A stretch of DNA of 34,320 bases from Cyclobacteriaceae bacterium (GCA_015492915.1 WGED01000695.1:1-34320); one strand, 5' to 3'; positions 16,948-30,295 are shown, counted from the first letter of the stretch. Notes: generated by a model not told the origin, from the sequence alone. Numbers and translations are program-made.

Positions 16948-18531
16948 TTATCCATTCATGGAAACGAGGAACTCCTCGTTGCTTCTTGTCCCTTTCATTT
17001 TACTCAGCAGGAATTCCATGGCCTCTGTCGAGTTCATGTCAGACATGAATTTTCTCAGTATCCATACTCTTTGCAGGAACTCCTGATCGAGCAGCAGTTC
17101 TTCGCGCCTTGTACCGGAAGCCGGTACGTCGATGGCCGGATAGATGCGTTTGTTCGAGAGTTTTCTGTCAAGTACAAGTTCCATATTACCTGTTCCCTTG
17201 AATTCTTCAAAGATCACTTCATCCATCTTCGAACCTGTTTCGATCAGGGCTGTGGCAATAATGGTCAGCGAGCCGCCATTCTCGACATTCCTCGCAGCGC
17301 CAAAGAATCGCTTAGGCTTGTGGAGGGCATTGGCGTCGACACCACCTGATAATATTTTACCAGATGAAGGCACAACAGTGTTATGAGCGCGCGCCAGCCT
17401 TGTGATTGAGTCAAGCAAAATCACAACATCATGACCGCACTCAACCATTCTCTTGGCTTTTTCGAGTACGATACTTGCCACTTTCACATGTCGTTCAGCT
17501 TGTTCGTCGAAGGTAGATGAAATGACTTCGGCTTTTACGCTTCTCGCCATATCCGTTACTTCTTCCGGCCTTTCGTCGATGAGCAGGATTATGAGATAAA
17601 CCTCCGGATGATTCTCGGCAATGGCGTTGGCGATATTTTGCAACAGCACGGTTTTACCCGTCTTGGGTTGTGCCACAATCATACCCCGCTGGCCTTTTCC
17701 GATGGGAGCAAACATATCCAGAATCCTGGTTGAATAATTGCCCGGCGAAGTGCAGAGATTGATCTTTTCCTGCGGAAAGAGGGGCGTCAGATATTCAAAC
17801 GGTACCCTGTCCCGGATTTCATCCGTCGTCTTGCCGTTTACCGTCTCGACTCTGAGCAAGGCAAAATATTTTTCACCTTCTTTAGGAGGCCTTATCTGAC
17901 CTTTCACAGTGTCACCCGTTTTAAGACCGAAAAGCTTAATCTGCGATGGTGATACATAAATATCGTCAGGGCTGGCGAGATAGTTGTAATCAGAAGATCT
18001 CAAAAATCCATAGCCGTCCTGCATGATTTCCAGTACACCCTCATTTGCAATAGCGCCGTCAAATTCTTTGATATTCGCTTTAAACTTTTTCTGTTCGGGT
18101 TTTTCCGGCTCCGGTTCCTTGGCTTTTCTGACCTTTTCCGGTTGAGGGCTTTCTTTCTTTTTCGGCTTTGAACTGTCGGTATCGAACGAAACGATCGACG
18201 GGTCAAAATCCATGGAAAGCGATTGCAACAGTTCCTCCGGGCTCATTTCCGAGGCCTCCGCAGGCTTTTCCTCAGATGGCGCCGGAGGCTCTTCGGTCGT
18301 CTTTTTCACATTTTCACGCTTGATGCGGATTTTTCTCTTCTTCTCCTCCTTTACTTCCTCCTTTTTAGTTTCTTTAGGTGCAGGCTCTACGGGATTGGAA
18401 GCCTGAAAATCAAGGATTTTGTAGATAAGTTCTTTTTTGGGGAGTTTTTTGAAGTTTTTAAGCCCAAGCTCTTCTGCGATTTCTTTCAGTTCCGAAAGCA
18501 ATCGCACATTTAATTCTTGAATTGTGTACAT
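16948..18531 (-). CDS. rho: transcription termination factor Rho (with a ~110-aa charged insertion)
   Basis: 527 aa. N-terminal [27 protein letters not shown]-like [15 protein letters not shown], Walker A AQPKTGKT, and [10 protein letters not shown]. Residues ~44-155 are K/E/P-rich low-complexity sequence. Confidence 0.97.
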
Positions 18532-20610: not shown

Positions 20611-20931
20611 ATGATTGAAGACGAGCTAAGAATACTGACAGTTGAATCAGGTAATGATATTACCATGAAACAACATGAAATGATTGCGGAACGGTTTAAT
20701 TCCATGGTCGGGATTAAACTGCGTAGTTGCAGCCGCCGTACTATTAAAATCGAATATTTTGCCCATCTTTTCAGTGAACAGGCTGTTCGGGAAGAGCTGA
20801 GTAGTCTGGGGATAACCTTTAAAAAGAAAAGAAAAGGAAACCTTTTCGAAAGGTTATTGAATTCCATCACTAAGGATAATGTAAAAGCATTCGGCGGTAA
20901 AAGAATCGACTGCTGCGACCTGAATCCATGA
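20611..20931 (+). CDS. hypothetical protein (106 aa) with a C-terminal Cys-Cys motif
   Basis: ATG-initiated ORF in a gap with no competing ORF. The composition is coding-like. It ends ...FGGKRIDCCDLNP. No family recognised. Confidence 0.55.
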   Translation: MIEDELRILTVESGNDITMKQHEMIAERFNSMVGIKLRSCSRRTIKIEYFAHLFSEQAVREELSSLGITFKKKRKGNLFERLLNSITKDNVKAFGGKRIDCCDLNP

Positions 20932-21142: not shown

Positions 21143-23566
21143 TTAATCCTTTGTCACCCTGCTACCGGCAGTCTTTTCGATCTCTACACTGGCATTGCCG
21201 CGATAATGTACATTACTGGCGCCCTTAGCGTCAATGGTCAGTCGCTTTTTAGCATATACCCTGGCCGACGATGCACTTCTGGTCTCAATATTTACCTCGT
21301 CGGCTATGAAATCGTATGATTCGAGGGTTGAGGCGCCACTGATTTTTGCTGTCAGTTTTTCGCCCTGGCCCGTTAGCCTGAGTTTGGCTGCGCCATCCAC
21401 TTCTGCATCGAGGTAGTCGGTTTTTATATCCATCTCTGCATAAGCAGCCCCCGACATTTTGATATCGATCATGTCTTCTTCAATACCACTGATATAAGCC
21501 CTGCTGGCACCTCCGAGATTGATCGCTTTGAGTTCGGGCACAACAATATAAATCTTGACGGGATTTTCCTTTCTCTTTTTGAAAATTGATTCAGGCCCTC
21601 TGTAGTCCAGGGATAATGTGTTCTCTGTTTTGTCCACAATCACATCGTTCACCATATCTTTTGGGCCGTTGATGATGAGCTCATGGCCGGAACCTTGTTT
21701 AATATATAGTGTAAAAGGAATACTCGTGATCACTTCCGTAAATCTGCCCACGTCGTAATTTCGCTGATAACCTTTTATGTCCCAGCTTGTTTTGTCACCG
21801 GTATCAGCCTTGCTTTCTTCAGGCTCAGGGCAGGTAATGCATTTCAGCCCTTTTTCATCAAAGGTCCAAACATTATCCCTGAGCATCCTGTTGCTGTATC
21901 CCTGGCGATACATATAAATGCCGAGCAAATGTTTCAGATTTTCATCAATAACAAATTTCTGTCCTTTGGGGATGTAAAGCGTCATGTTAAGGTGTTGATT
22001 TCTGAATCCCGCCCCTTCACCGAAGTTGAGCATTGAGTTGAATAAAAAGACGGAATCCTGCACTTCGACATTATATATGATCTTTTTGGCATTTTCAACG
22101 GCTTCTTCCCGCGTTTTGCCTTTGGCATAATAATTTTGTTCGAGCATGATTACGGAGTCATCCGCCGGTTTGATGGTGAGCGAAATAAGCTCAAACTGAT
22201 CCTCTCCGATATCATTAAAACGTAAAATCGCCGTTTTCCCATGGAGGTCATAGTTCTTAACGGTAGTGTATTTCCCGTCCATGCGGAAATTACTGATATA
22301 GCGGGGTACGGTGAAGCTGAGCACGATCACGCTGATAAGCCAGAGTGCAAGCAGCGACCAGTTTATTTTTGAGTTTACCACATTCCGTTTCATAATAATT
22401 ATGAGTCCGAGCAAGGCGAGGTAGAAAGACATGATGCCCAATACTACCGATAGAGCGATGCCGGAAATGAGTCCTACATCATTTTTAATCACCTCAAGGG
22501 GGTAGAGGACATTGAGATCGCTCCCGGCGAACAGTCCTATCATGATGCCACTGGTGATGAGTATAGCCAGGATACCGCTCAGCCCTGCCAAAGTAAGTAT
22601 CACACCGAATATCACCCTGATCGCTTCGACAAGGAACAACATAAACGGACCGAGGGCCTTGGATAAAAAGCCAAACAGGGCTGCGATCAATCTGAACGGG
22701 AAAAGGAATATTTTCACGAATATATTTTCCTCGCCTTCTTCCACCTTCAGGCTCTTCTTAATGTTAGACTCAATGCTACTCAGTGTGACGGGCTGCCCCT
22801 GCATTTCCATTTTATCCGTTAGGGTTTTTGCCTCAGGCAGTATGATCCAGAGCAATATGTAGAGGATCAGCCCCGTACCTGCAAAGAATATGCTGATGAA
22901 AAACAACAGTCTGACAATGACTACATCGATACCGAAATATGCCGCAATACCTCCCGATACGCCGCCCAGCACTTTGTTGTCCGGATCGCGGTACATTTTT
23001 TTAATCTTCTTTTTCTCAACTAAGTCATCCGAAGGCGGGATGATGATCCACATTACTATATAACCGAGCAGCAATACCCCACCGATGGAAGGTAATTTGG
23101 ATACTCCGAAAAACAGCAGCATGTAGATAAGCCTGATCCACAACGGATCAATGCTGAAGTAGTAGGCAATGCCTGAGAGCACACCGGCGAGCAATTTCCT
23201 TTTTGTATCACGGTACAATCGTTTCGGTTCCTGCACCACCTGCGGCCCTTCTTCCTGAGTTTCTTCCTCTTCATCCATTCTGTATGTACTTTCCTCCTCA
23301 GCGGCCTGAAAATCTTTGATGCTTCCCATCGTCGCTATCAGCGATTCGACATCTTCCTTTTCGATTACCTGCTTGCCGCCCTCCTTGAGCTTTGAGAGAA
23401 AAATCTCAGCGATGCGCGTCTCAATGTCAGAGATGATTTCGAGGCTGTCTTCAAAAGTAGAGAAATATCTGTTGATGGATTCGAGGTATTCTTTGAGTTG
23501 GTCGTAGCCGTCTTCTTCTATGTGAAATATAATACCGCTTATGTTGATACTGATATTCTTTTTCAT
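21143..23566 (-). CDS. PspC-domain membrane protein (two PspC domains, multi-TM block, C-terminal DUF2807/DUF4097-like beta-helix)
   Basis: 807 aa. PspC repeats LYRDTKRKLLAGVLSGIAYYFSIDPLWIRLIYMLLFF and MYRDPDNKVLGGVSGGIAAYFGIDVVIVRLLFFISIFF. The C-terminus has repetitive G-A-S/A strands (LGGASRAYISG, MSGAAYAEMD, VDGAAKLRLTG, ISGASTLESY, AKGASNVHYRG). It lies 8 nt downstream of padR. Confidence 0.9.
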   Translation of the reverse strand: MKKNISINISGIIFHIEEDGYDQLKEYLESINRYFSTFEDSLEIISDIETRIAEIFLSKLKEGGKQVIEKEDVESLIATMGSIKDFQAAEEESTYRMDEEEETQEEGPQVVQEPKRLYRDTKRKLLAGVLSGIAYYFSIDPLWIRLIYMLLFFGVSKLPSIGGVLLLGYIVMWIIIPPSDDLVEKKKIKKMYRDPDNKVLGGVSGGIAAYFGIDVVIVRLLFFISIFFAGTGLILYILLWIILPEAKTLTDKMEMQGQPVTLSSIESNIKKSLKVEEGEENIFVKIFLFPFRLIAALFGFLSKALGPFMLFLVEAIRVIFGVILTLAGLSGILAILITSGIMIGLFAGSDLNVLYPLEVIKNDVGLISGIALSVVLGIMSFYLALLGLIIIMKRNVVNSKINWSLLALWLISVIVLSFTVPRYISNFRMDGKYTTVKNYDLHGKTAILRFNDIGEDQFELISLTIKPADDSVIMLEQNYYAKGKTREEAVENAKKIIYNVEVQDSVFLFNSMLNFGEGAGFRNQHLNMTLYIPKGQKFVIDENLKHLLGIYMYRQGYSNRMLRDNVWTFDEKGLKCITCPEPEESKADTGDKTSWDIKGYQRNYDVGRFTEVITSIPFTLYIKQGSGHELIINGPKDMVNDVIVDKTENTLSLDYRGPESIFKKRKENPVKIYIVVPELKAINLGGASRAYISGIEEDMIDIKMSGAAYAEMDIKTDYLDAEVDGAAKLRLTGQGEKLTAKISGASTLESYDFIADEVNIETRSASSARVYAKKRLTIDAKGASNVHYRGNASVEIEKTAGSRVTKD

Positions 23567-23574
23567 CTTTATGG

Positions 23575-23925
23575 TTATTTAGAGGAATCTTTCTTTACTG
23601 ACGATTTAATGATCTTATTGGTTGAATCTACCAGCTCTTTCCACGTTTTGTCGAGCTGGCTCAAAAATTCACTGCCTTTATTTGTGAGCGTATAATACTT
23701 TCGTGGCGGGCCCGAAGTGGATTCCACCCATTTATATTCGACCAGTCCCGCTTTGCGCAGTCTTGTCAGTAATGGGTATAATGTGCCCTCCACCACAATG
23801 ATCCTAGCCGATGTCAGCTCTTCGAGCATGTCCGAGGCATATACTTCACCCCTCGAAATTATGTGTAAAATACAAAATTCGAGGATGCCTTTTCTCATTT
23901 GTACCTGCGTGTTTTCAACCTTCAT
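23575..23925 (-). CDS. PadR-family transcriptional regulator
   Basis: 116 aa. ILEFCILHIISRGEVYASDMLEEL...EGTLYPLLTRLRKAGLVEYKW is the PadR winged-helix signature. Confidence 0.92.
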   Translation of the reverse strand: MKVENTQVQMRKGILEFCILHIISRGEVYASDMLEELTSARIIVVEGTLYPLLTRLRKAGLVEYKWVESTSGPPRKYYTLTNKGSEFLSQLDKTWKELVDSTNKIIKSSVKKDSSK

Positions 23926-23966: not shown

Positions 23967-23989
23967 AGTACCTTGTATGGCCAGGTACT
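23967..23989. promoter_or_regulatory. inverted repeat AGTACCT-N9-AGGTACT, candidate PadR operator
   Basis: Perfect 7-bp arms, 42 nt upstream of the padR start in the divergent padR / porV-like intergenic region. Confidence 0.35.
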
Positions 23990-24150: not shown

Positions 24151-24158
24151 TACTTTTG
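24151..24158 (+). promoter_or_regulatory. candidate -7 promoter box (TActTTTG) for the porV-like/porU-like operon
   Basis: Matches TAnnTTTG 26 nt upstream of the TTG start at 24184. Confidence 0.35.
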
Positions 24159-24183
24159 TAACAATACCAAACAAGCGACGGGG

Positions 24184-25263
24184 TTGAGGAGCCTTTACCT
24201 GATATTTTTCGTGTTTTTCTCTTTCACTGTATTTGGGCAGATCACTGCACCAAAGTACAGTAATGAATTTTTGTCGATAGGTGTAGGGGCCAGGGCACTC
24301 GGCATGTCAAATAGTGTCGTGTCGAATGTGTCGGATGGGACGGCGGTGTACTGGAATCCGGCGGGGCTGTTGTCAATCCCCGATAAATATGAAGTCAATC
24401 TCATGCATGCGGAGTACTTTGCAGGCATCGCCAATTATGATTTCCTCAGTTTTGCTATGCCGATCGACACAGTGAGCCATTTAGGGTTCAGTATCATCAG
24501 GTTTGGCATAGATGACATTCCTGACACCCGCTTTCTCTATGATGCCAATGGCAGCATCAACTACGACAAAATCCGCTTTTTTTCTGCGGCTGACTATGCT
24601 TTTCTCTTTTCATATGCCCGCCGGCTTCCGATACTCGGAGGCATAAGTTTGGCAGGCAATTTCAAGGTAGTACATCGCTCCGTGGGTGATTTTGCCTCGG
24701 CATGGGGCTTCGGGCTCGATGTCGGAGCACAAAAGGTTATAGGCTCATGGCAGCTGGGATTGATGCTTCGCGACATTACCGGAACATTTAATGCATGGTC
24801 TCACAATGCTTCTCTCGTCGAGGATGTGTATGCCCTTACGGGAAATATTATCCCTGTCTCTTCCATCGAGGTCACCTTGCCGAGAATGATCTTCGGCGTC
24901 ACAAAGAATTTTGAGTTTGGGGACAGGTTCGGAATACTCGCTGCCGCTGATCTTGAGTTTACTTTCGACGGCAAACGCAATGTTGCCATCAAAACGGATG
25001 TATTTTCAATCAATCCGATGGTCGGTGTTGAGATGAATTATGCAAAGATCGCTTATGTGCGACTGGGAGCCGGTCGGTTTCAGCGCGTTGAAGGATTCAG
25101 AAGCAATGCCTACACTTCATGGCAACCTAATTTTGGCCTTGGTATAAAGATAAAAGTGCTCAGGATCGATTATGCGATGACCGATTTTTCAGACAGCGCA
25201 GAATCACTCTATTCTCATGTTTTCTCTCTGGCTGTTAGGTTTAATGACAAAAAAGATAAATGA
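24184..25263 (+). CDS. PorV/PorQ-family outer-membrane beta-barrel protein (T9SS shuttle-like)
   Basis: 359 aa with signal peptide MRSLYLIFFVFFSFTVFGQ. The pattern FLSIGVGARALGMSNSVV...AVYWNPAGL resembles the conserved PorV/LptO N-terminal motif. Alternating beta-strand pattern with an aromatic C-terminus region. The TTG start is inferred because the open frame has no in-frame ATG upstream. Confidence 0.8.
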   Translation: MRSLYLIFFVFFSFTVFGQITAPKYSNEFLSIGVGARALGMSNSVVSNVSDGTAVYWNPAGLLSIPDKYEVNLMHAEYFAGIANYDFLSFAMPIDTVSHLGFSIIRFGIDDIPDTRFLYDANGSINYDKIRFFSAADYAFLFSYARRLPILGGISLAGNFKVVHRSVGDFASAWGFGLDVGAQKVIGSWQLGLMLRDITGTFNAWSHNASLVEDVYALTGNIIPVSSIEVTLPRMIFGVTKNFEFGDRFGILAAADLEFTFDGKRNVAIKTDVFSINPMVGVEMNYAKIAYVRLGAGRFQRVEGFRSNAYTSWQPNFGLGIKIKVLRIDYAMTDFSDSAESLYSHVFSLAVRFNDKKDK

Positions 25264-25270
25264 CGACTGC

Positions 25271-28200
25271 ATGAGAAAACGGCTAAAAATATTGGTTTTT
25301 TTCATAGCGGGGTGGCCGTTGGTTTCACAGTCGCAGCCCTACGGTAATGAATGGATCAATTTTTCGCAGCAGTACTATAAGATCACCACGGCGGAAGATG
25401 GTATTTACAGGATCACATATGATGATCTTATTACTGCCGGGTTTCCCGTTTCTACCGTTGATCCCGGGAAAATTATGCTTTTTCACAGAGGGGAAGAACT
25501 GGCCATTTATATTGAAGGCCAGGACGACGCCCGCCTTGACCCACCGGATTATATTGAATTTTACGGCAGGCGAAACGATGGCGCCCTTGATGAGGAAATA
25601 TACATCAAACCTGAGGCCCAACCACATAAGTATTATAACATCTACTCGGACACCACGGCTTATTTCCTCACGTGGAGCCTGATAGAAAATGGCAAGCGAA
25701 TGTCTTATTTCAAAGAGGAAAATACCTCCGGCCTTCCCGCCGAGCCATATCATCTTGAAGAAAGATTGAATTTATATACTGATAATTATTCGATTGGATT
25801 GCACTATCCGATCGGTGTACCAAGCGCCGAGACCTATCTGACGGAATTTGATTACGGAGAGGGCTGGACAGGCACTGCTTTTCGCCAGGGACAATCGAGG
25901 GATGTGGCTATATCGGGGATCGATCAGGTTGTCACGTCCGGACCTAATCCTGTACTTGAGGTGCTGCTCGCGGGCAGAAATAATCTTGCACATGATGTTG
26001 TGGTCGAGGTAGGGCCCGATGCGGGAAGCCTTCGTCTGCTTAAAGAAATCAAATTCAATTATTATTATACTTTTCTGATGACCGATACCATCGAGTGGTC
26101 AGATATCTCAGGGGGAAATTTTATGGTCAGAGTGACGATCAAGGACAATGGTGTTGCGGATCGTGTGTCGATTTCATATGTAAAATTAAAGTTTGCTGCA
26201 GCATGGGATCAGGGCAATTTGCAGCAGAAGGTATACCGCCTTGCTCCGAATGGTTCAGGCAGATCTTATGTTGAGATTCAGAATGTGCCTTCCGGTGCGA
26301 TGATATACGATATTACCGATGAGAGAAATGTGATTAATATAGGGTACAATATCAATGGAGCTGCTATAGACGCCATGCTGCCCAATGACACGAAAGGGCG
26401 CAAACTGTTTCTCACCTCCCGCCGAATCCCCGTGCCGAAGATTCAACAAATTTCCATGCGGAATCTGCAACCCGCCGGTGTGGATTATGTCATCGTCACC
26501 CATAAGCTATTGAGGCAGCCATCAGCCAATTATGCCGATGTGCCCAGGGCGTATGCTGCTTACAGGGCTTCACCACAGGGAGGAGGGTACGACACGATGG
26601 TGGTAAATATGGATGATCTGTATAATATGTTCAGCTACGGAGAATATACCTCATTGGCTATGCACAGGTTTGCTCGCTTCCTGGCTGATAAGGGTGACCC
26701 GCAATACATTTTTATTATAGGGAAGGGGCTTAATCCCGCCTATAATTTTTTCCGACTCGATCAGGAGGCGCAACCGGCAAGAGATCTGATCCCGACAGGA
26801 GGTTATCCGGGTAATGACATAATTTACACAGCGGGTCTGAAAGGCTCAACCTATGAGCCCGGCATACCTATCGGAAGGGTGGCAGCTACTACTCCCCAGG
26901 TACTTGAGTCCTATTTTGAAAAAGTGAAAGAGATGGAGGCAGGCCCGTATAATGAGCTGTGGCGAAAGGAGTTGGTGCATGTAAGTGGGGGCCGGGATCC
27001 TTTCCAGCAACAGATATTCCGCACTTATGTAGACGGCATGAAGGCAGTGGTTGAAGGACCATTGTTGGGTGGCGATGTAGTTACCTTTAGCAAGACAGTA
27101 ACCGGCCCCACGCAACTGATCAATATTTCGGATGTGGTGAATGACGGTAAGATCCTGATCACCTTTTTCGGCCATTCTGGCACGCAATCTACCGATGTGG
27201 ACATCGGCAAGGTGAGCAACGACAGTTATGGCTACAGCAATAAAGGTAAATATCCCATGATGCTCGTCAACGGTTGTATCGCCGGGGATATGTTTAATAT
27301 GGGATTTGAAGGTTTTGGTGAGGACTGGATCAACACACCGGATAAAGGGGCAATAGGTTTTATCGCCCACACAGGATCAGGCCTCACGTCAAGATTAAAA
27401 ATGTACAGTGACTTATTTTATGAAGTGGCATTTACCGACTCCCTTTTTCTTGCGAAAGGGGTAGGAGAGATTGTTAAAGAAGTCGGGAAGAGGTATCTGG
27501 AAAAATATTCAGACAATGAAATAAATATCTCGCAAATTCAACAAATGGCCCTGCAGGGAGATCCGGCCGTGGCCCTGGTAAGGATGACAAAAACTGATTA
27601 TGAGATCAACCAGGACAATATTTTCGTGCAAGCGGTCGATGATCAGCCTATCAATGTTTTTACGCCGGTATTTAACCTTGGTCTCATAGTCCGCAATCTG
27701 GGCATCACCAATGAAGATTCGCTGAAAATAACCGTCGTTCGCAAGTTGAGCGGCGGTCAGGAATTAGCACTCGATACCCTTGTTTACGGGCCTGTTTATT
27801 ACAAAGATACATTGTATTTTCCCATCAAAAATGTCGGGCTGGACGGTTTCGGAAACAACCGGTTCACTGTATATCTCGATCCGCTCGGTGAGATCCATGA
27901 ATTTGATGACATGAATAATAGCGCCTTCTATGATTATTTTTTGTTGCTGGGGGGTACACGCAATGCATTTCCGGCTAATTATTCCGTCATAAATAAAAAT
28001 GAGATACGGCTTGTCGCCCAGTCGCTCAACCTGCTGGCAGATGACCGCACCTATTTATTTGAGATCGATACCACTGCCGGCTTTGATAGCCCCGTAAAAA
28101 GGCAAAATTCCATACAGGGAGCAGCTACTGCAAAATGGACCGTTAGTCTTTTTGACAACCTGCCGGTGCAGGACACGGTCGTCTTTTACTGGCGCACCAA

Positions 28201-30295
28201 ATTTTCTGATCCTCGCCCTGATGAACTCAATATCTGGATGACGACCTCATTTGTATATATTAAAAATTCTCCTCCCGGATGGGCAATGACTCATTTTGAG
28301 CAGTTCCAAGGCAATAAGCTGGATAACATTGTTTTGAATGACCAAAACAGGCAATGGGAATTTCAGAAATTTAATACTGATCTCTATGTGAGAACTTTCG
28401 GCGCCTCACACCCCAATTATAATTATGAAAATGTACAGTTGACCATCAACAATACGGAATACATCTTCCCGACACGTCTGTGCACAGATAATTCCGTTAA
28501 CATGGTTGCATTCGATAAAGTGACCACATTGCCATATCTCGTTTTAGGCAGGTCTTTTATCCTTGACAGACGCAGTTGCGGGCGTCAACCGCAGGTGATC
28601 AATAATATGCTGAAAAATGAAATTGAAGGGCAACTGAAAATCGAAGAATATATCGACAAAATGGGTGATGGTGATTATGTGCTGATGTTTTCTATCGGCA
28701 ATGTCACCTATCAGAGCTGGCCGGCGACCACTATTGCCAAACTGGAGGCTATTGGAGTGAGCGCCTCACAGTTGCAAAACCTTCAGAATGGAGAGCCGGT
28801 GATCATTCTCGGAAAGAAAGGGACAATTCCCGGATCAGCCACAGTTATCAAAGCAGATTATACAAGCCCGGATCCTGCCACGGAGCAGGAAATCACCATG
28901 GTAAAAACGATTACAGGCCAGGCTGTGTCAGGTACTGTTTCGAGTCCGAAAATCGGCCCTGCCGCCTCATGGAGTAAATTCTATCAACAAACGGGATCAC
29001 TTGAATCGCCAACGCTCGATCAGTACACATTCGATATTTACGGGGTTGATAAAAACAATAACGAGAGCTTGCTGTTTGGCAATGTACAACTTGGGCAGGT
29101 GGATCTCACGAGTGTGGATGCCACAACATATCCATTCATGAGATTACAACTGAATTTATCTGATGAACAGGACCTGACACCTGCGCAATTGAAGAAATGG
29201 ATTGTATTGTTTGATGGTTATCCTGATGGCGTACTAAGCTACAAGCCGGGACAGGAAATCGAAAACATAGAGAAAATGGAAGGAGAGGTTCATGAAGTTT
29301 CTTTCATTTTTGACAACATCGGGGAATTACCTTTCACTGATTCCATAGCTGTGGAGTATCGTTTATTCAATCACGACAGCCGAACCACTTTTGCCGATAC
29401 TTTCAACATAAAGCCTCTTGGCGGAAGAGAGATGACAGATTTTGCAGTGTACCTTGAAACCCTGAAAAGAACCGGCCTCAATGATCTTAAAGTGTTTGCC
29501 AATCCCTACCTGCAGCCGGAACATAATTATAACAATAATATCATACAACTGCCTGATTATCTCAATGTAATGGCAGACAACATCAACCCTATCCTGGAGG
29601 TGACGGTTGACGGCCAGTTTATCATGGATGGCGATATCGTTTCGCCCTCGCCGGTTATCACGCTACGGCTTAAGGATGAAAATGATGTCTTGTTCAAGGA
29701 AGATACGTTGGGCGTAAACCTGTATCTGAATAAGAAATGCGAAAATTGTGAGCCGGCAAGGATCAGTTTTTCATCACCCAATGTAACCTGGACGCCGGCG
29801 ACTAAGGACAATGACTTCATGGTTGAATTCAGACCGGACAAGCTGGAAGACGGCATTTACACTTTGCGTGCCGAAGCGTCGGATGCGAGTGGAAATCCGT
29901 CTGGCACTGAGCCCTATGCCGTAAGCTTTGAGGTGATCAATGAATCACAGATCACCAATTTCTTTCCCTATCCCAATCCGTTTTCAACACGGACGCAGTT
30001 TGTCTTCACCCTTACGGGAAGTGAGATACCGGATGAGATATACATTCAGATCATGACTGTGAACGGCACAGTGGTCAAAGAGATCACACAGGATGAAATC
30101 GGCCCGATTCATATCGGAAACAATAAGACAGAATATGCCTGGGATGGCCGCGATCAGTATGGCGACCAGCTTGCAAACGGGGTGTATTTGTATAAAGTAA
30201 AGGTGTACAAAGACGGCAAGGAGATGAAGATGCGGGCTACCAGCGCCGATCGTGCCTTTAAGCATGGCTATGGGAAATTATACCTTTTAAGGTGA
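25271..30295 (+). CDS. giant peptidase C25 (gingipain/PorU-type) protein with a T9SS C-terminal domain; PorU-like sortase candidate
   Basis: 1,674 aa from ATG 25271 (MRKRLKILVFFIAGWPLVSQSQ signal peptide). PorU-like N-terminus GNEWINF..YYKI..DGIYRITYDDL. Clan CD dyad: FFGHSG (His 27173-27175) and VNGCIAG (Cys 27275-27277). Two CARDB/Ig-like modules. CTD: YPNPFS...GVYLYKVKV...KLYLLR. Confidence 0.88.
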   Translation: MRKRLKILVFFIAGWPLVSQSQPYGNEWINFSQQYYKITTAEDGIYRITYDDLITAGFPVSTVDPGKIMLFHRGEELAIYIEGQDDARLDPPDYIEFYGRRNDGALDEEIYIKPEAQPHKYYNIYSDTTAYFLTWSLIENGKRMSYFKEENTSGLPAEPYHLEERLNLYTDNYSIGLHYPIGVPSAETYLTEFDYGEGWTGTAFRQGQSRDVAISGIDQVVTSGPNPVLEVLLAGRNNLAHDVVVEVGPDAGSLRLLKEIKFNYYYTFLMTDTIEWSDISGGNFMVRVTIKDNGVADRVSISYVKLKFAAAWDQGNLQQKVYRLAPNGSGRSYVEIQNVPSGAMIYDITDERNVINIGYNINGAAIDAMLPNDTKGRKLFLTSRRIPVPKIQQISMRNLQPAGVDYVIVTHKLLRQPSANYADVPRAYAAYRASPQGGGYDTMVVNMDDLYNMFSYGEYTSLAMHRFARFLADKGDPQYIFIIGKGLNPAYNFFRLDQEAQPARDLIPTGGYPGNDIIYTAGLKGSTYEPGIPIGRVAATTPQVLESYFEKVKEMEAGPYNELWRKELVHVSGGRDPFQQQIFRTYVDGMKAVVEGPLLGGDVVTFSKTVTGPTQLINISDVVNDGKILITFFGHSGTQSTDVDIGKVSNDSYGYSNKGKYPMMLVNGCIAGDMFNMGFEGFGEDWINTPDKGAIGFIAHTGSGLTSRLKMYSDLFYEVAFTDSLFLAKGVGEIVKEVGKRYLEKYSDNEINISQIQQMALQGDPAVALVRMTKTDYEINQDNIFVQAVDDQPINVFTPVFNLGLIVRNLGITNEDSLKITVVRKLSGGQELALDTLVYGPVYYKDTLYFPIKNVGLDGFGNNRFTVYLDPLGEIHEFDDMNNSAFYDYFLLLGGTRNAFPANYSVINKNEIRLVAQSLNLLADDRTYLFEIDTTAGFDSPVKRQNSIQGAATAKWTVSLFDNLPVQDTVVFYWRTKFSDPRPDELNIWMTTSFVYIKNSPPGWAMTHFEQFQGNKLDNIVLNDQNRQWEFQKFNTDLYVRTFGASHPNYNYENVQLTINNTEYIFPTRLCTDNSVNMVAFDKVTTLPYLVLGRSFILDRRSCGRQPQVINNMLKNEIEGQLKIEEYIDKMGDGDYVLMFSIGNVTYQSWPATTIAKLEAIGVSASQLQNLQNGEPVIILGKKGTIPGSATVIKADYTSPDPATEQEITMVKTITGQAVSGTVSSPKIGPAASWSKFYQQTGSLESPTLDQYTFDIYGVDKNNNESLLFGNVQLGQVDLTSVDATTYPFMRLQLNLSDEQDLTPAQLKKWIVLFDGYPDGVLSYKPGQEIENIEKMEGEVHEVSFIFDNIGELPFTDSIAVEYRLFNHDSRTTFADTFNIKPLGGREMTDFAVYLETLKRTGLNDLKVFANPYLQPEHNYNNNIIQLPDYLNVMADNINPILEVTVDGQFIMDGDIVSPSPVITLRLKDENDVLFKEDTLGVNLYLNKKCENCEPARISFSSPNVTWTPATKDNDFMVEFRPDKLEDGIYTLRAEASDASGNPSGTEPYAVSFEVINESQITNFFPYPNPFSTRTQFVFTLTGSEIPDEIYIQIMTVNGTVVKEITQDEIGPIHIGNNKTEYAWDGRDQYGDQLANGVYLYKVKVYKDGKEMKMRATSADRAFKHGYGKLYLLR

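Follow-up and report, generated by a model that had tools for sequence, protein, structure and literature searches.

The 34,320-nucleotide stretch of DNA analysed here (the window; Cyclobacteriaceae bacterium, GCA_015492915.1 WGED01000695.1:1-34320) carries two adjacent genes, porV2 and porU2, which are predicted to encode an outer-membrane β-barrel of the PorV/PorQ type and a large C25-family peptidase related to PorU from type IX secretion systems (T9SS). On balance we favour the view that the two genes form an operon representing a second, paralogous version of the T9SS PorU/PorV module, and that PorU2 would be docked on PorV2 and process a subset of the cargo. At the level of the family, PorV2/PorU2 is a true paralogous second pair, as can be seen in related genomes. 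A first-pass annotation of the window had proposed such a pair, and the proposal is borne out at the family level by the occurrence of canonical PorU beside PorU2 in three of these genomes.

For the comparison, canonical seeds from the Cytophagales were obtained by searching plasmids with PorV and PorU fragments derived from the PDB, and the PorU seed was then used on the protein database. Canonical PorU and PorU2 were found to share one contig in each of three genomes. In Rhodocytophaga rosea (CP048222.1) the porV2-porU2 pair lies at 3.99 Mb and a canonical porU, followed by a gene with a Pfam PorV match, at 6.76 Mb; in Fulvivirgaceae bacterium BMA10 (contig JAUJEA010000005.1) porU is located at 137-153 kb and porV2-porU2 at 451-468 kb; and in the 7,859,018-bp chromosome of a Cyclobacteriaceae metagenome-assembled genome (MAG) the corresponding positions are 6.51 Mb for porU and 1.07-1.10 Mb for PorU2. 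Canonical PorU of the related genomes reaches 1,233-1,435 bits on the canonical PorU model NF033707, as against about 195-203 bits on the PorU2 model, which is the mirror image of what is seen for the window protein (see below). The shared contigs and the reciprocal model scores therefore identify PorV2/PorU2 as a paralogous second pair at the family level. A canonical porV was observed alongside the pair in one genome, that of R. rosea. PorU2 is thus unlike a single-copy porU that is followed by porV, since the three related genomes have a separate porU and since porV2 precedes porU2 here. The barrel-first arrangement noted in the first-pass annotation is correct, and contrasts with the canonical order of porU and then porV seen in R. 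rosea and in published work (PMC8564354).

Profile searches place both window proteins in families of their own. PorU2 matches NF052324 (PorU_rel_Nterm, "putative type IX secretion system sortase PorU2"), an N-terminal model of 879 positions, with 987.5 bits against a cutoff of 450, residues 8-883 of the protein covering model positions 5-879. PorV2 matches NF052325 (PorVQ2, "putative type IX sorting system protein PorV2") over its full length, with 516.7 bits against a cutoff of 325 and residues 6-353 on positions 6-353 of 354. The cutoffs of the canonical models are failed by both proteins: PorU2 scores 237.8 bits on NF033707 (<420), and PorV2 scores 29.4 bits on PorV NF033710 (<250) and 57.7 bits on PorQ NF033711 (<220), its Pfam PorV match also being sub-threshold. 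The broader model NF033709 (PorV_fam) is barely passed by PorV2 (93.8 bits, cutoff 90), and the catalytic domain of PorU2 matches PF01364 (Peptidase_C25) over positions 1-374 of 374 with 199.8 bits (cutoff 23, E=1e-58). PorU2 has more than 1,700 homologues; among the best 120 listed, lengths range from ~1,550 to 1,820 amino acids (aa) and the majority fall between 1,665 and 1,730 aa. Names such as PorU2 and PorV2, suspected earlier to occur in automated annotation, do exist there as the curated NCBIfam models NF052324 and NF052325 and in RefSeq, where the name PorU2 has already been applied to homologues in Fulvivirga sediminis and Catalinimonas niigatensis. The pair is known from automated names only, in that the literature searched uses neither PorU2 nor PorV2 (the apparent matches were reference superscripts), and a search of the literature for PorU paralogues returned false positives or unrelated uses only. 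The family has been catalogued and named by NCBI curators, and the window therefore adds a typical member of it and no new kind of system.

The catalytic machinery of PorU2 can be aligned with that of solved C25 enzymes. When a profile of 16 diverse PorU2 C25 domains was compared with the PDB, it matched Porphyromonas gingivalis PorU (residues 405-786, E=9e-15), RgpB (E=6.5e-11) and Kgp (E=3e-10), and the alignment set FGHS on ...YTGH211GS and NGC on ...DVAC244VNG of RgpB. The clan-CD dyad that had been read from the sequence, His635 in FFGHSG and Cys669 in VNGCIAG, 34 residues apart, is confirmed in its positions and falls on RgpB His211/Cys244 and on the His/Cys pair of PorU. Neither residue varies in any of the homologues compared (193/193). 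The aligned His655 and Cys688 of the PorU chain would be His657 and Cys690 if the numbering is offset by 2 residues, and the residue changed in the C690A mutant (PMC5562754) is probably Cys688. Single-sequence phmmer searches of the PDB with PorU2, either at full length or as the C25 domain, found nothing relevant, and a profile of close homologues reached the C-terminus of PorU only. In an AlphaFold2 model of PorU2 aa 395-1440 (mean pLDDT 87.5) each catalytic residue directly follows a β-strand, and the top folds retrieved with Foldseek are those of RgpB (1cvr, E=8e-18), Kgp and PorU (6za2, E=2e-11). On the evidence of these alignments, the His635/Cys669 dyad of PorU2 is intact.

Read from its sequence, PorU2 is a predicted Sec substrate. 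Both of its ends are homologous to PorU (the N-terminal region and C25 domain on one side, the C-terminal immunoglobulin (Ig)-like and C-terminal domains on the other), and it carries an insert of ~530 residues. At 1,674 aa it is, as had been remarked, longer than characterised PorU, for which the P. gingivalis chain has 1,156 aa, model NF033707 has 1,095 positions and Cytophagales proteins have 1,130-1,151 aa. The PorU-like N-terminus that had been claimed for it is evident from the alignment of NF033707 to aa 32-772. In a BLASTP comparison with the canonical PorU encoded by a Chondrinema litorale plasmid, PorU2 aa 14-770 align to PorU 14-790 with 18% identity and aa 1436-1645 align to PorU 933-1132 with 24% identity (E 5e-11); the close-homologue profile likewise set P. 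gingivalis PorU 930-1143 on PorU2 aa 1437-1656. In PorU2, aa 17-903 and 1432-1655 are matched by a PorU2-type protein of 1,094 aa that a Runella rosea plasmid encodes, and the insert can therefore be delimited at aa 904-1431, a region with no counterpart in either the Runella protein or canonical PorU. The short Runella variant does have the β-sandwich domain (aa 770-903) that follows the catalytic domain. Foldseek comparisons of the insert region retrieve macroglobulin/complement-like arrays of multiple β-sandwiches. A domain search gives a weak match to ILEI in the insert (E=0.02), and weak profile matches to PDB 2kl6/3idu ("uncharacterized protein") occur at aa 861-898. Two CARDB/Ig modules had been reported in this protein; there is no Pfam match to CARDB, and the structure model contains about six β-sandwich domains.

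The assignment of the C-terminal domain of PorU2 also required adjustment. It had been called type A, but it lies below the cutoffs of both type A models (TIGR04183, 19.3 versus 23 bits; PF18962, 19.2 versus 27 bits) and below that of the type B sorting domain CHU_C (PF13585, 18.5 bits, cutoff 27); what stands is the homology of the C-terminal ~220 aa to the C-terminus of PorU. These sub-threshold matches and that homology are the reasons for which we refer to it as a PorU-type C-terminal domain, by homology, and not as a certified type A domain. The same end of the protein matches FlgD_ig (33.4 bits) and Big_13 (29.3 bits) and, weakly, the C-terminus of PorZ.

The coordinates of the pair given in Table 1 were derived from a scan of open reading frames (ORFs) and their translations. 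They bear out the earlier description of two plus-strand genes 7 nt apart, the first of 359 aa with a TTG start. Identical public products have the same starts (P0121, 359 aa, for porV2; P0001, 1,674 aa, for porU2), and in the family alignment a porU2 start at 25271 gives a typical signal peptide. The signal-peptide-like N-termini of both proteins stop just ahead of a Gln, as read from the sequence; a signal peptide had been claimed for gene 1, and on such a reading a signal-peptide-like segment is seen there. A terminator-like site was looked for between porV2 and porU2 on the plus strand and none was found. The sequence TACTTTTG at 24153-24160, 24 nt 5' of the porV2 TTG, fits the Bacteroidota -7 element TAnnTTTG, and a -7-like element occurs at the equivalent position in just 12 of 53 related loci, for which the start sites are approximate. 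An alternative porU2 start at the in-frame ATG 25217 was rejected, as it would overlap gene 1 and both P0001 and the family alignment begin at 25271.

Table 1. Coordinates of porV2, porU2, their parts and the adjoining regulatory genes in the window
Feature	Position	Strand	Evidence or remark
porV2 (gene 1)	24184..25263	+	TTG start at 24184, TGA stop 25261-25263; 359 aa
PorV2 signal-peptide-like segment	aa 1-18		...TVFG, followed by QITAPKY; read from sequence
porU2 (gene 2)	25271..30295	+	ATG 25271, TGA stop 30293-30295; 1,674 aa
PorU2 signal-peptide-like segment	25271..25333	+	MRKRLKILVFFIAGWPLVSQS, followed by QPYGNEW; read from sequence; family consensus ...AQxYGNEW
PorU-type N-terminal region, aa 22-405	25334..26485	+	NF033707 positions 4-735 on aa 32-772
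Peptidase_C25 catalytic domain, aa 406-769	26486..27577	+	PF01364, Foldseek, C25 profile versus PDB
Catalytic His635 codon (CAT, in FFGHSG)	27173..27175	+	aligned to RgpB His211, PorU-chain His655
Catalytic Cys669 codon (TGT, in VNGCIAG)	27275..27277	+	aligned to RgpB Cys244, PorU-chain Cys688
β-sandwich domain following the catalytic one, aa 770-903	27578..27979	+	inside NF052324 N-terminal model; β-strands in AlphaFold2 model
PorU2-specific insert, aa 904-1431 (~530 aa)	27980..29563	+	tandem β-sandwich domains and one α/β domain (weakly ILEI-like)
C-terminal Ig-like domain and PorU-type T9SS C-terminal domain, aa 1432-1674	29564..30292	+	PorU alignments
PadR-family regulator, divergent	23575..23925	-	PF03551, E=2.7e-19; immediately upstream of porV2 in 53/81 loci
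807-aa membrane sensor (PspC, LiaI-LiaF-TM, Toastrack, DUF2807), in operon with PadR	21143..23566	-	Pfam; 52/81 loci
Palindrome AGTAC-N13-GTACT, candidate PadR operator	23967..23989	.	42 nt 5' of PadR ATG, about 195 nt 5' of porV2

A relative of PorU2 is encoded in at least 573 species-representative genomes, of which 80 loci were fetched for comparison (some counts below and in Table 1 are out of 81). The 80 loci are chiefly from the Cytophagales, including Cyclobacteriaceae, Fulvivirga, Roseivirga, Marivirga, Algoriphagus, Pontibacter, Rufibacter, Adhaeribacter, Spirosoma, Bernardetiaceae and Microscillaceae, and a few members at a greater distance (31-33% identity) come from MAGs labelled Bacteroidales, Rikenellaceae or Sphingobacteriaceae. 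By record title nearly all of the loci belong to the Bacteroidota; one MAG contig (L060) is titled Thalassobius. In 71 of the 80 loci porV2 lies directly upstream of porU2 on the same strand, and 6 of the other 9 are cut by the end of a contig, which leaves 71 of 74 informative loci with the pair. No second C25 protein, second PorV-like protein or other protein sharing the insert occurs within ±10 kb of PorU2 in any of the 80 loci.

By analogy with known T9SS surface proteins, one can sketch how the pair might work. The canonical PorU sortase takes the C-terminal domains off T9SS cargo and links that cargo to anionic LPS. In P. gingivalis, PorU and PorZ retain their C-terminal domains and are held at the surface by PorV and PorQ, respectively, PorV additionally shuttling cargo to PorU (PMC5562754); a review puts it forward as a general rule that surface proteins retaining the C-terminal domain have cognate PorV-like barrels as their anchors, and extends this to type B cargo with PorP/SprF (PMC10202324). 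On this pattern, PorU2 would be exported through the T9SS translocon by way of its C-terminal domain, would keep that domain, and would dock on its cognate barrel PorV2, which would hold it at the surface. The array of β-sandwich domains might serve as a stalk or spacer that sets the reach of the active site, and the docked enzyme, by means of His635/Cys669, would cleave the C-terminal domains of a subset of the T9SS cargo and could possibly transfer them to an acceptor. On the analogy of PorU:PorV and PorZ:PorQ, we consider it probable that PorU2 is docked on PorV2 and that part of the T9SS cargo is processed by it. A broader version of this view is offered tentatively, as a possibility short of probable: that PorV2/PorU2 might constitute a second, independently deployed T9SS attachment/processing module for a cargo class or surface acceptor outside the reach of canonical PorU/PorV, and that in most Cytophagales it might be coupled to a PadR/PspC-Toastrack stress sensor and remodel the surface coat under membrane stress.

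Several observations weigh against the view of PorV2/PorU2 as a second cargo-processing module. In three loci (L056, L059 and L065) porV2 is truly missing upstream of a full-length porU2, the 10 kb upstream of porU2 in L065 carrying unrelated genes. The Runella rosea plasmid gene (NZ_CP030852.1, L081:11926-15210), whose 1,094-aa product is annotated as "C25 family cysteine peptidase" and scores 949 bits on NF052324, has no adjacent PorV2 either, its neighbours on the plasmid being two-component and phosphatase genes; this short protein is without the aa 904-1431 insert, and its type A C-terminal domain scores just at the cutoff. From these three loci and the Runella gene it follows that the barrel is not always encoded alongside. 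Within ±10 kb in the 80 loci there was no gene that resembled cargo and shared this kind of C-terminal domain, nor was any PorZ-like or PorQ-like partner found linked to porV2-porU2, and the canonical sortase reaction requires both PorZ and PorQ (PMC5562754). Finally, the C-terminal domain of PorU2 itself remains below the type A cutoffs.

The lack of linked PorZ/PorQ and of linked cargo, together with the presence of canonical PorU in the same genomes, where it could act as the sortase, makes a serious rival of the explanation that PorU2 is a surface-displayed, gingipain-like protease with a degradative or maturation role, itself a T9SS cargo. PorV2 would then be no more than its dedicated membrane anchor, and the array of β-sandwiches would be either a stalk or a region that binds substrates or glycans. 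We regard this as possible, if somewhat doubtful. By structure the C25 fold of PorU2 is nearest to the gingipains (RgpB ahead of PorU in the E values given above), and the long β-sandwich array with its weak ILEI-like, lectin-type domain would suit such a protein. By sequence profile, however, PorU2 is nearer to PorU (57.7 bits, 405-786) than to RgpB (45 bits) or Kgp (43 bits), and its score on the PorU model is 238 bits; its PorU-type N-terminal region and C-terminal Ig and C-terminal domain regions are unmatched by the solved gingipain chains in these alignments, and the strict conservation of its pairing with a PorV-family barrel is a hallmark of T9SS machinery and not of ordinary cargo.

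The barrel itself is predicted, on the basis of the models, to have the PorV/FadL fold and belongs, as an outer-membrane β-barrel, to the PorV/PorQ (FadL-like) superfamily. The FLSIGVGARALGMS...VYWNPAGL pattern, which had been singled out in the product of gene 1, is present there. The AlphaFold2 model of PorV2 is of moderate confidence (pLDDT 73.4, pTM 0.70), and the PDB structures nearest to it in fold are 8gl6_F (F. johnsoniae PorV, E 6.9e-12, TM 0.57) and 6h3i_F. A PorV2 sequence profile reaches F. johnsoniae PorV over the N-terminal ~110 residues only (E=5.9e-4). An exhaustive search of representatives with this profile gave 333 clusters at E≤1e-30 and 6,971 at E≤1e-3, which indicates that PorV2 is a sizeable sub-family within a large superfamily; when PorQ/PorV seeds were sought with the profile, all of the 150 matches listed were PorV2-like. 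After PorV, the fold matches of the model are FadL, TodX and TbuX (E about 1e-8 to 1e-9), and these strong matches, with the sub-threshold Pfam PorV match, might be taken to mean that the pair is unrelated to the T9SS and consists of a FadL-type channel for hydrophobic substrates beside an unrelated secreted peptidase. This we consider very unlikely, as the best structural matches are to PorV itself, the curated PorV/PorQ-family and PorV2 models are passed, the peptidase has a PorU architecture with a PorU-type C-terminal domain, and the fetched loci come almost entirely from the Bacteroidota, the T9SS phylum. Least probable of all is that porV2-porU2 is the sole PorU/PorV pair of its organism, a divergent Cytophagales orthologue of the canonical genes: other T9SS genes were looked for in the window and none was found, the remainder consisting of housekeeping genes, two related genomes have no porV after the canonical porU and canonical PorV was confirmed in a single genome, but canonical PorU (1,233-1,435 bits) shares a contig with PorU2 in three genomes, porV adjoins porU in R. 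rosea, the window proteins fail the canonical cutoffs, and Cytophaga hutchinsonii, of the same order, uses an experimentally studied canonical PorU/PorV, with PorQ and PorZ (PMC8564354, PMC11611037).

The surroundings of the canonical genes in the comparison set vary. On the Chondrinema litorale plasmid (L083), in the Cyclobacteriaceae MAG (L084) and in BMA10 (L086), the genes that follow porU encode a PhoX phosphatase and a cytochrome c peroxidase of the MauG type, in the place of porV, and the PhoX gene of L084 and L086 has a Pfam Por_Secre_tail match; in R. rosea (L085) porV follows porU, as it does in model organisms. A conjugative plasmid of Emticicia oligotrophica (pEMTOL01, L082:6325-8294) carries a gene that passes the canonical PorV model (268 bits, cutoff 250) and directly follows another gene, whose product bears a T9SS type A sorting domain, and these two genes may represent a mobile pair of cargo and shuttle.

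When set beside the systems already described, PorV2/PorU2 shows both resemblances and departures. The window proteins are ordinary members of the NCBIfam PorU2 and PorV2 families, whose names are marked "putative", and they pass the cutoffs widely, match the models from end to end and show no difference from these families. With the PorU/PorV pairs of P. gingivalis (PGN_0022/0023) and C. hutchinsonii (CHU_3237/3238), and with PDB entries 6ZA2 and 6H3I, they share the C25 domain, the same His/Cys dyad, the PorU-type N-terminal region, the C-terminal Ig and C-terminal domains and the PorV/FadL-fold barrel encoded next door. They differ from these pairs in the ~18% identity of PorU2 to canonical Cytophagales PorU across the N-terminal region and C25 domain, in the ~530 extra, mainly β-sandwich, residues, in the barrel-first order, in failing the equivalog cutoffs, in their co-existence as paralogues with the canonical genes and in the lack of a linked PorZ or PorQ. 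In the manner of PorZ/PorQ and of type B cargo with PorP/SprF, PorU2 might be a T9SS-exported surface protein with a dedicated PorV-like barrel (PMC5562754, PMC10202324), and PorV2 does score higher on the PorQ model (57.7) than on the PorV model (29.4), and the C-terminus of PorU2 is weakly PorZ-like; unlike those systems, PorU2 is a C25 peptidase with no PorZ-type β-propeller, PorV2 fails the PorQ cutoff and the CHU_C match is sub-threshold. The gingipains RgpB and Kgp (MEROPS C25, clan CD) have the same catalytic fold and dyad and are the best structural matches of PorU2, but the matches to their solved chains are confined to the catalytic region, the flanks of PorU2 being of PorU type and no gingipain-type adhesin domain having been detected.

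The models of the T9SS that have been drawn from Porphyromonas and Flavobacterium presume one sortase (PorU) and one shuttle (PorV). A second, strongly conserved pair with an intact dyad in hundreds of Cytophagales species implies a division of labour in the trimming, release or anchoring of secreted proteins. In F. johnsoniae porU mutants, SprB and RemA are reported to be still secreted (PMC11611037), and a second pair could help to explain the persistence of cargo secretion in porU mutants of some species. The compactness of the pair and the clear target for point mutation provided by Cys669 make the question directly testable.

Upstream of porV2 in the window lies a divergent operon for a PadR-family regulator and a PspC-Toastrack membrane sensor (Table 1). 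Its linkage to porV2-porU2 spans several families, whereas each of the other flanking gene families is found in ≤20 loci; the linkage is not present in R. rosea, in BMA10 or in the distant loci. PadR and PspC/Toastrack modules are known as envelope-stress signalling systems (PMC11237479). We regard the operon as a conserved neighbour of porV2-porU2, a description that does not imply membership in the module. The palindrome GTAC-N13-GTAC, a likely candidate for the PadR operator, occurs in 34 of 53 intergenic regions and is always proximal to PadR, even where a spacer of 0.7-1.9 kb separates it from porV2. This constant location near the PadR start, and not near porV2, argues for PadR autoregulation. 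Direct control of porV2 through the operator was considered and set aside, since the palindrome stays by PadR at any spacer length and nothing points to porV2.

Some further observations concern the genes around the pair. Stand-alone DUF2807 proteins of BMA10 adjoin both the canonical porU (L086:4964-5647) and porU2 (L088:12080-12805), and DUF2807 is also the final domain of the PspC sensor in the window. Among the remaining genes of the window, the Rho protein encoded on the minus strand at 16948-18531 has 527 aa and matches a 413-position model from end to end, which indicates an insertion of ~110 residues, and the last part of a 106-aa ORF on the plus strand at 20611-20931 is a mini-domain described as "LDCC motif putative metal-binding" (NF040898, 38.5 bits, cutoff 30).

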